A stretch of 63,979 nucleotides of DNA, filler included, from Basidiobolus ranarum (Eukaryota): the NCBI GenBank assembly GCA_040143965.1. It is 4 parts of 4 records of this genome, joined end to end, with 100 filler letters (N's around TTAATTAATTAA, not from the genome) between each part and the next. Parts side by side here need not be neighbours in the genome. Positions count along the whole stretch, not along the records: positions 32,370 to 48,409 come from JASJQH010007231.1; 3 more parts are not named here. One strand, 5' to 3'. Shown here one piece after another: positions 47,061 to 48,295 of this stretch (the stretch's first letter is position 1; every line of letters starts with the position of its first letter). The translations under genes were made by a program, and so were the position numbers. Below the pieces are notes generated by a model. That model was not told the DNA's origin and did no database searches. It worked only from the letters and a program-made list of their open reading frames with translations.

Positions 47061-48295
47061 ATGATACTTTTCATTTCCAGCCGACCAGTAGACATAGTAT
47101 CATTCCCAAACTTCTCTCGAGGATTCTTGGCAAGCCATTTGTCTGATCGTAGTTGATTAATGAAACTTGAGAGCTTCATTTTTCTAAAAGTTAACAAACT
47201 ACTGGTACGCCAGTCTTCTCCTGCAAGGTGATCTTCATTTGCTCTCATGACCGGAGTGACTTTGGCTTTTTCTTGAAGATACTTGGCTAACTTGTCTTTG
47301 TTGGCATTTGAAGATTTAAAATGTGATAGGGAACCCTCAGCTGTGATGACTTGGTCGGTCTTTAAGTTCGCTCTGAGCTTCCTAAATTTTCTGTATTTTA
47401 TTTCAATTGTTTTTTGGTTGCTTGTATATCGGTAAACCATTTTGTTTTCAGCAGTACTTTCTTCGTGCATACAGTACAGAAAACAGCGACGTCCAGGATC
47501 AATTAGCACACATTTGCCAACATCGGCCTTCAACTCTTCTCTTCCCAACTTCTCCACATACTGAAACTCTTTAACTTTGCACCACTGCCACCACTACCCT
47601 TCTTCATATCACAGTTTTGCTTTAACACCAACACACCTACACCATCTATATACATCATACCTCTAAACTTCATTGACTTCCTTTTTCCTTGTGGTTTCAT
47701 TGCCTTTTATGTGAGGTCAATAATGGTTTCCCAAGCTGCTTCTTTATCCAAGTGGCTGGTGATAGAATCCTCCAAGCTCTGAGTATTTAAAATATATGTA
47801 TCAATTGTCATGTAGGATGGTATGAAGCTCCTTCTTAACAGAAAGCCATTGAATGGCTTGTTTTGGAGAGCTTTGCATATGCCTGACAGTCTGGCATATG
47901 TCTTTATATGCTTGAGAGGGTTGCTTTTGTAGTCATAATAGATTGAATCTTTTGCAAATCAATAATCTGTCAAATACAAGCCAAAAAGACCATGGATCAT
48001 ATCCAAATCATTTGAGGAGAGAAATTCCCTAGATATTTCTTCAATATTTCTTGACCAAATAGCCAACTTGGCCTGCTTTATATGTTCTGTTATTGTCTTT
48101 ATGGCTACCCTAACCTCTTTCTCACTTCCCCCATTCTTCTTTATTTTGCTTTCTAGCACCTTGATTCTTTCACTCTTCTTCAAGAGCAAGTTAAGAATCA
48201 TGAATTGTCATGGCAGTCTCAATTTTGCCACTTTATAAGAAGCTATCTGATGAGCATACTTTGTGTTGACTGATTCATAAGAGCAACACTGAAAG
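47061..48295 (-). pseudogene. Decayed Fanzor1 (eukaryotic TnpB-like RuvC nuclease) gene
   Basis: Frameshifted segments in the expected order: YAHQIASY, SIYYDYKSNPLKH, F.LRRSFIPSYMTIDT.IL, KFRGMMYIDGVGV, FQYVEKL, GKCVLIDPGRR.FLYCMHE (RuvC-I), YRYT.NQ, FRKMKLSSFIN, KFG, WSAGNEKYH; contains stops and frameshifts; 3' RuvC-II/zinc finger/RuvC-III missing. Confidence 0.8.

Follow-up and report, generated by a model that had tools for sequence, protein, structure and literature searches.

How did a gene fragment so close to the Fanzor1 genes of Rhizopus, a genus of the Mucoromycota, come to lie in the genome of Basidiobolus ranarum, which belongs to the phylum Basidiobolomycota (NCBI taxonomy)? The fragment is found on the minus strand, at 47043-48297, of a stretch of 63,979 nucleotides from GenBank assembly GCA_040143965.1 (hereafter the window, along whose full length positions are counted), on the piece derived from JASJQH010007231.1. 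Judging from sequence comparison, the interval 46819-48297 very probably represents the right-hand two-thirds, now decayed, of a DNA transposon that was non-autonomous, had terminal inverted repeats and carried Fanzor1 as its sole gene. This level of confidence is a joint one, given to the best explanation as a whole, namely, that the locus is a Fanzor1 transposon remnant, that it is a member of the Rhizopus branch, that it arrived horizontally, and that it decayed.

We found the minus strand from 47043 to 48297 to be collinear with Fanzor1 proteins, three reading frames being sufficient to cover it. In tblastn, a Rhizopus arrhizus protein of 577 amino acids (aa), P0001, matched the window with a summed E value of 6e-144, well outside what chance would give. 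Its aa 2-244 fell on 48261-47566 (frame -2, 152/243 identical), its aa 246-410 on 47578-47093 (frame -1, 115/165), and its aa 416-430 on 47087-47043 (frame -3, 9/15), and protein identity over aa 2-430 was 63-70%. A longer relative, P0010, carried the match out to 48297, and all five query proteins matched the window at this interval only (tblastn, E <= 1e-3). The coding remnant can thus be divided as follows.

47581..48297, minus strand, frame -2: Fanzor1 coding remnant, N-terminal (REC/WED-side); corresponds to P0001 aa 2-240 and P0010 aa 106-360.
47093..47578, minus strand, frame -1: Fanzor1 coding remnant, RuvC-I and the following helical region up to KFGND.
47043..47087, minus strand, frame -3: last recognisable codons, WSAGNEKYH..., matching GNWSAGKVKYHEP of the relatives.

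In the N-terminal segment there are three stop codons and two deletions of 15 nt, together with a local frame slip (1 nt/2 nt), and the RuvC-I segment falls inside an open stretch of 189 aa (47024-47593). A first-pass annotation of this DNA had pieced together a fossil Fanzor gene from minus-strand peptide blocks, in the order YAHQIASY (from 48258), SIYYDYKSNP, LRRSFIPSYMTIDT, FRGMMYIDGVGV, CVLIDPGRR, YRYT, FRKMKLSSFIN, KFG, and WSAGNEKYH (47087-47061). All of these blocks were recovered on that strand at the positions given, and the frame slip written as K/IETA near 48225 appeared in the DNA alignment as a 1-nt and a 2-nt deletion. The span assigned to the gene, 47061-48295, was in the right place, but its limits had to be moved, as homology starts at 48297-48300 and ends between 47059 (DNA) and 47043 (protein); in blastn, DNA homology stops at window position 47059, which is position 3842 of the Rhizopus-type contig L001 described below.

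When the 189-aa open stretch was compared with the proteins of the PDB, it matched Parasitella parasitica PpFz1 (9cf0; E 5.2e-22) and Spizellomyces punctatus SpuFz1 (8gkh; E 6.3e-06), the matches after these two being noise (E 0.32 and 1.1). The comparison with SpuFz1 and Fanzor1 that the annotation had proposed therefore gave significant matches to both solved Fanzor1 proteins, and these, together with the tblastn match of P0001, bear out the identification of the locus as the fossil of a Fanzor1 (TnpB-related) gene. The annotation had also taken DPG as RuvC-I, and indeed CVLIDPGRR, whose aspartate codon gat lies at 47500-47498, was aligned onto the RuvC-I motifs DPGRRD of PpFz1 and DPNKRD of SpuFz1, this aspartate (D32) being invariant in 13 aligned sequences. 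P0001, the nearest intact relative, matched PpFz1 (E 1.6e-140) and SpuFz1 (3e-50) over nearly its full length, including DEFRTSS (RuvC-II), a CxxC...C..C zinc finger, and WNRD (RuvC-III), the last being present in all three proteins; RuvC-II and the C4 zinc finger of the relatives read LLDEFRTSSLCPSC...C..C.

Homology of the remnant stops at P0001 aa 425-430 of 577. The missing C-terminal 153 aa (P0001 425-577) left no trace in the window in a relaxed tblastn search (E <= 50), in which the best match, with an E value of 0.095, lay elsewhere, and the missing N-terminal part gave only chance-level matches in the window. The RuvC-II glutamate with its [TS][TS]-X-X and C4 zinc finger and the RuvC-III RD motif are thus absent from the window copy, as had been noticed at first reading. 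Relative to the Fanzor1 motif of Bao and Jurka 2013, D-X(125,275)-[TS][TS]-X-X-C4-X(5,50)-RD (PMC3627910; what we take from this paper, from Xu et al. 2024 and from Yoon et al. 2023 concerns selected passages of each), only the first D is retained. The window copy is a member of Fanzor1 by descent only, RuvC-II and the zinc finger having been lost by deletion.

The architecture of the element became apparent from L001, a metagenome contig of 4,815 bp retrieved by an alignment-based scan, which encodes P0001 at 99.6% identity. L001 has one gene only (about 2220-4358), which contains two or more introns, and no transposase is encoded. The gene is flanked by inverted repeats of 135 nt (1721-1855 and 4446-4580) that are 89% complementary; L001 1721-4580 is thus an apparently intact, 2.86-kb non-autonomous Rhizopus-type Fanzor1 element. 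The remnant DNA at 48300-47059 aligned to L001 2533-3842 with 76% identity over 1,313 columns. Beyond the coding remnant, the right-hand side of the element comprises two further features.

46852..47042, minus strand: about 190 nt unalignable with the Rhizopus-type element, with only 8-14 nt chance-level matches to L001.
46819..46851, minus strand: tip of the right terminal inverted repeat, with host DNA beyond; 88% over 34 nt to L001 4544-4577.

The repeat tip has the same orientation as the coding remnant and is collinear with L001. It also matched the left arm of L001 (1724-1763) in inverted orientation, with 82.5% identity over 40 nt, as well as a second contig, L003. A 17-mer common to the tip and L001 occurs once in the window and in 0 of 100 shuffles, and L001 as a whole matched the window at three places only. 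The repeats of L001 flank the gene on both sides; in the window, one end is visible and the left end is off the contig. The claim that this copy has no 3' end was therefore too strong, since the tip of the right inverted repeat is kept, but it holds for the omegaRNA stretch, which is deleted or unrecognisable.

Between the tip and the last codons, 46852-47042 stands for about 700 nt of the element, namely, codons 426-577, an intron, the 3' untranslated region, and the inner arm of the repeat. A 14-nt match of window 47053-47040 to L001 4525-4538 (E 0.15) might mark the deletion joint and is too short to rely on. A TTAGGG-type 16-mer lies at 46969-46984, inside the filler DNA of this internal deletion; it is one of four interstitial TTAGGG-type runs of 13-16 nt (42828-42841, 46969-46984, 59139-59151, and 61887-61901), and a telomere-like 13-mer was found 3 times in the window and 0 times in 100 shuffles. 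Such runs may be a promoter motif or a footprint of repair or telomerase.

The first-pass annotation had called the copy dead, and this was confirmed by the three stop codons, the switches between frames -2, -1, and -3, the indels that are not multiples of three, and the loss of two of the three catalytic motifs. The three stops lie in the frames that matched best in tblastn against P0001. Compared with the Rhizopus-type DNA, the remnant shows frame-breaking deletions of 1, 2, 10, 5, and 5 nt and in-frame indels of 15, 15, 3, 3, 6, and 9 nt, the exact count varying with the alignment, and it is without the first ~105 codons of the Fanzor1 gene. Because of the stops, the frameshifts, the 5' truncation, and the internal deletion of the RuvC-II, zinc finger, RuvC-III, and omegaRNA region, the window copy cannot work, and we regard it, from its sequence, as inert as a nuclease.

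We then considered which Fanzor1 proteins are closest to the remnant. A protein search with the remnant open reading frame (ORF) returned 34 hits, all of them listed, and a wider search with P0001 returned 224, of which the best 120 were listed; statements on either search refer to these lists. Every named relative of the remnant ORF was from the Mucorales, with identities of 64-70% for Rhizopus arrhizus/delemar, 58-63% for R. microsporus, and 44-55% for Helicostylum, the single Thamnidium and Parasitella hits being at 48% and 36%. More Mucorales genera were among the matches listed for P0001, in addition to R. microsporus copies at 54-65% identity and Coemansia and Syncephalis (Zoopagomycota) copies at 34-41%. 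No Basidiobolus protein, and hence no intact Basidiobolus paralogue, appeared among the 34 remnant-ORF hits or the best 120 of the 224 P0001 hits, both Basidiobolus proteomes being in the database. Single-protein scans of metagenome and viral contigs gave no match; the alignment-based viral scan retrieved giant-virus Fanzors only, and since these are just 27% identical, no viral vector is indicated. One of the relatives, the 561-aa Rhizopus arrhizus protein P0006, combines the Fanzor1 body with a segment of ribosomal protein S24e (residues 510-549, Pfam E 2e-11) and probably owes this to a gene model fused across an inserted transposon.

The suggestion that the locus represents an uncharacterised Fanzor family did not survive this comparison, because the closest relatives, at 63-70% identity, are Rhizopus arrhizus/delemar proteins that are already annotated, and because the lineage is homologous along its length to PpFz1, which is solved and active. 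On the sequence evidence, we place the element in the Rhizopus arrhizus/delemar branch of the Mucorales lineage of Fanzor1, of which PpFz1 is also a member. The passages of Bao and Jurka 2013 on fungi describe four Fanzor1 families in Rhizopus oryzae RA 99-880, ten in Mucor and three in Phycomyces, some elements having MuDR-like repeats, and the fungal part of their Table 1 does not name Basidiobolus (PMC3627910). The window copy is thus a new copy of a Fanzor1 lineage that is already known and has been catalogued in Rhizopus since 2013.

The copy looks horizontally acquired, because its host is a Basidiobolus and its relatives are Mucorales, two different phyla. For phylogenetic analysis, the remnant was read through, with X at stops and frame breaks, and aligned with 56 proteins hand-picked for length and taxon spread from 123 family proteins, giving a 57-row tree; 30 of these proteins and the remnant were used for a more careful, 31-row tree (IQ-TREE). 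In the 31-row tree, the remnant was sister to five R. arrhizus/delemar copies with an ultrafast bootstrap of 100 and a support of 99 in the Shimodaira-Hasegawa-like approximate likelihood ratio test (SH-aLRT), and the same placement was obtained in the 57-row tree (SH-aLRT 99). This pair joined the R. microsporus copies (86/90), and the Rhizopus group was in turn nested among Gilbertella, Helicostylum, Cokeromyces, Pilaira, Thamnidium, and Parasitella, so that the remnant stood deep inside the Mucorales in the 31-row tree, well removed from the copies of Coemansia and Syncephalis. A tree constrained to keep the nine Rhizopus rows as one group excluding the remnant was worse by 25.4 log-likelihood units (approximately unbiased [AU] test, p 0.006). 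The gene tree is therefore in supported conflict with the species tree (100/99; AU p 0.006, for a group named post hoc).

Both trees also showed a Mucor saturninus copy grouping with copies of Syncephalis (100/99 in the 31-row tree), a group to which the 57-row tree added Mucor mucedo and one R. microsporus copy with an SH-aLRT of 100 (rows P0206, P0209, and P0216 with P0194, P0205, and P0226). This grouping hints at further cross-phylum transfers or at old paralogy in Fanzor1.

Divergence was next assessed at the DNA level. The remnant and L001 share 974 of 1203 aligned nucleotides, the identity at codon positions 1, 2, and 3 being 86%, 83%, and 74%, where composition alone would give 25.5% at position 3. 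The Nei-Gojobori (NG86) estimates over 390 codons were 0.16 for nonsynonymous (dN) and 0.53 for synonymous (dS) divergence. In vertically inherited genes compared between phyla, synonymous sites should be saturated. The dN/dS ratio of ~0.3 points to selection still acting on the gene during most of the divergence. We consider that a Fanzor1 inverted-repeat transposon was probably passed from a donor of the Rhizopus lineage (Mucoromycota) into Basidiobolus by genuine transposition and then died, transposition being suggested by the fact that the terminal repeat abuts host DNA.

Several points weigh against this explanation. The inverted-repeat match is just 34 nt long, a local Pfam scan of five ORF pieces gave no family match (all E >= 0.075), and RNA folding of the 3' regions gave no omegaRNA signal, the z score being +0.98 for window 46800-47060, a region mostly deleted, and -1.57 for the intact L001 3' region, for which 14/200 shuffles were as good. 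Rfam likewise gave 0 matches, and six intact relatives had no Fanzor/TnpB family in the local Pfam copy either, PF26935, the label precomputed in the protein database, being absent from that copy. With respect to the history of the element, the group used in the AU test was chosen with the tree already in view, nesting can be mimicked by paralogy among transposons, and the saturation of host genes between Basidiobolus and Rhizopus was assumed from general knowledge, not from host-gene dS. Furthermore, transposon genes are often unannotated, and this, together with the restriction to 120 of 224 hits, means that Basidiobolus paralogues may exist unseen. The remnant could also be regarded as a vertical relic, that is, a lineage inherited from the common ancestor of Basidiobolomycota and Mucoromycota that decayed in place: Fanzor1 also occurs in other zygomycete phyla (Coemansia and Syncephalis), the superfamily thus being an old one in such fungi, and one Basidiobolus copy is known here, leaving its history thinly sampled. 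The nesting of the remnant among the Rhizopus copies, with the alternative rejected by the AU test, the low dS and the high third-position identity all speak against vertical descent, as does the low identity of Coemansia and Syncephalis copies to P0001, 34-41% compared with 63-70% for the remnant, and we judge it improbable.

An assembly artefact, in which 46819-48409 would come from a Mucorales-like contaminant mis-joined to a Basidiobolus contig, has to be considered since the remnant is confined to the last 1.6 kb of a contig and the assembly is fragmented (~16-kb contigs). However, the remnant is heavily decayed and only 63-70% (protein) or 76-81% (DNA) identical to any sampled Rhizopus copy, and a contaminant of sequenced Rhizopus would match far better. 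In addition, the host/element junction at 46819 lacks a repeat that would favour a chimera, a host gene lies on the other side of the element, and the 5' side abuts a repeat family with at least five further copies on another contig of this assembly, which has an NCBI-annotated gene; we hold an artefact to be improbable too, and a shade more so than vertical descent. It is also conceivable that the remnant was co-opted, the 189-aa stretch being expressed as a truncated RuvC-I protein or the DNA serving as regulatory sequence for the neighbouring PA-RING gene. That stretch is the longest open frame of the remnant, which ends ~300 bp upstream of the neighbour's start codon near 46520, but it has no start codon at its head, it is bordered by stops and frameshifts, and two of the three catalytic residues and the zinc finger are missing; no relative built on so short a plan came to light, although no search was aimed at one. 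Co-option is accordingly the least probable of these alternatives, and very improbable in itself.

Horizontal arrival of a Rhizopus-type transposon would then have proceeded from a donor of the Rhizopus lineage, through horizontal transposon transfer, to insertion in Basidiobolus ranarum and decay. The intact relatives would be omegaRNA-guided RuvC endonucleases, as for PpFz1 and SpuFz1; a living Rhizopus-type element would have the same nuclease activity, with a guide RNA from its right end, and would be mobilised in trans through its 135-nt repeats. From the TnpB and Fanzor literature, the nuclease most likely aids persistence of the transposon by cutting target DNA beside a short target-adjacent motif (TAM). 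In the Basidiobolus copy, the internal deletion has taken RuvC-II, the zinc finger, RuvC-III, and the omegaRNA region, leaving RuvC-I and the repeat tip.

On its 5' side, the remnant is bounded by a different type of sequence.

48299..48409, plus strand: dispersed repeat, first 111 nt of ~345 bp; 88-89% to 48891-49007 (minus strand) and 58262-58375, and 87% to 57314-57424.

This repeat begins 2 nt from the 5' limit of Fanzor homology (48297), runs to the contig end, and marks the N-terminal-side cut of the remnant; the first ~105 codons and the left inverted repeat may lie beyond it, on another contig. We rejected the view that this is the inverted repeat of the transposon itself, since the 135-nt repeats of the Rhizopus-type element are unrelated to it and since the ~345-bp repeat is not one of the three places at which L001 matches the window. 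At least five further copies are present on piece 4. The members of the family, which starts TGAAATTAGCATTGCC, lie at 48299-48409, 48657-49005, 49226-49572, 57089-57429, 57585-57928, and 58261-58588; they are 70-89% alike and on piece 4 often form inverted pairs 150-220 bp apart. The family may be of solo LTR, foldback or MITE-like type.

A PA-domain RING-finger gene (ORFs 45476-46341) follows downstream of the transposon end, its probable start, near 46520, being ~300 bp away. An ORF at 44234-44677 (3-hydroxyacyl-CoA dehydrogenase) is 100% identical to Basidiobolus ranarum K7432_007306 and 99% to its B. meristosporus counterpart, and the remainder of the remnant-bearing contig consists of ordinary host genes. 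The window as a whole is made of four pieces of 16,108, 16,061, 16,040, and 15,470 nt, apparently contigs joined in size order, which are separated by linkers N44-TTAATTAATTAA-N44 at 16109-16208, 32270-32369, and 48410-48509. Features separated by a linker are not genomic neighbours; as the remnant sits right at the end of piece 3 (32370-48409), what comes after 48409 does not truly adjoin it. Elsewhere in the window, a very AT-rich stretch at 50000-52000 (GC 0.26-0.30) adjoins a single-exon P-type ATPase gene of 1,103 aa (51659-54970, minus strand), which lies in a region with a GC content of 0.44-0.46.

The window copy has no value as a source of a genome-editing nuclease, since it is dead, intact Rhizopus relatives are already public, and PpFz1 is solved; the L001 element would serve well as a template from which to work out the omegaRNA and TAM of its lineage. 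The interest of the locus is evolutionary, in that a Rhizopus-type Fanzor1 transposon is found in another phylum with low synonymous divergence. Basidiobolus has already been discussed as a recipient of foreign genes. Horizontal spread of Fanzors has been proposed in general terms (Yoon et al. 2023, PMC10711439), and the present copy offers a specific example for this proposal. Our full-text literature searches found no paper pairing Fanzor with Basidiobolus, and no fungus-to-fungus Fanzor transfer was found in the titles listed or in the passages of PMC10711439 and PMC3627910 covered. If true, the transfer would be a concrete, datable case of the spread of an RNA-guided nuclease transposon between early-diverging fungi and would raise the idea that the nuclease helps such elements to establish in new genomes. 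We therefore regard the locus as mildly to moderately notable, as a probable cross-phylum transposon transfer into Basidiobolus.

We finally compared the remnant with named systems, of which bacterial TnpB, carried by IS200/IS605 and IS607, is the ancestral transposon-encoded RNA-guided RuvC nuclease (PMC3627910, PMC10711439). The pieces of the remnant had no direct match to the TnpB Pfam models. In contrast to TnpB, the Fanzor1 gene here is eukaryotic, has introns and a long N-terminal extension, and sits in an inverted-repeat transposon. The guide RNA of TnpB is encoded at the 3' end of its element. SpuFz1 (8gkh), an omegaRNA-guided DNA endonuclease with a short TAM (PMC11423790), is of the same family, and RuvC-I and the following helical region can be aligned with it, but it is much more distant, its host is a chytrid, and its TAM is unlike that of PpFz1. 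Closer to the remnant is PpFz1 (PDB 9cf0-9cf3), which acts as a DNA endonuclease under the guidance of an omegaRNA and has the TAM 5'-ATN (Xu et al. 2024, PMC11423790), and which is homologous to the 189-aa ORF, the N-terminal part of the remnant being only ~35% identical to it. The lineage of the remnant, as represented by P0001, is without ~105 PpFz1 residues (chain 987-1091) that lie between two matched stretches and that, by position, we infer to be the cyclophilin-binding FRI insertion described in that paper.

The closest named systems are those of Rhizopus. P0001 (G6F57_014079) and P0002 (RO3G_11178, from strain RA 99-880) have CVLIDPGRR in the same context as the remnant. ROr-1 to ROr-4, described from the same strain as P0002, are Fanzor1 genes on non-autonomous terminal-inverted-repeat transposons, and a 9-bp target duplication is reported for ROr-4 (PMC3627910), whereas a 9-bp duplication at the L001 ends was unconvincing, with 6/9 at best, by eye. 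The 2.86-kb Rhizopus-type element of L001 is intact, while the Basidiobolus copy is marked by stops, frameshifts, a 5' truncation, and an internal deletion of ~700 nt, yet both end in the same right inverted-repeat tip.

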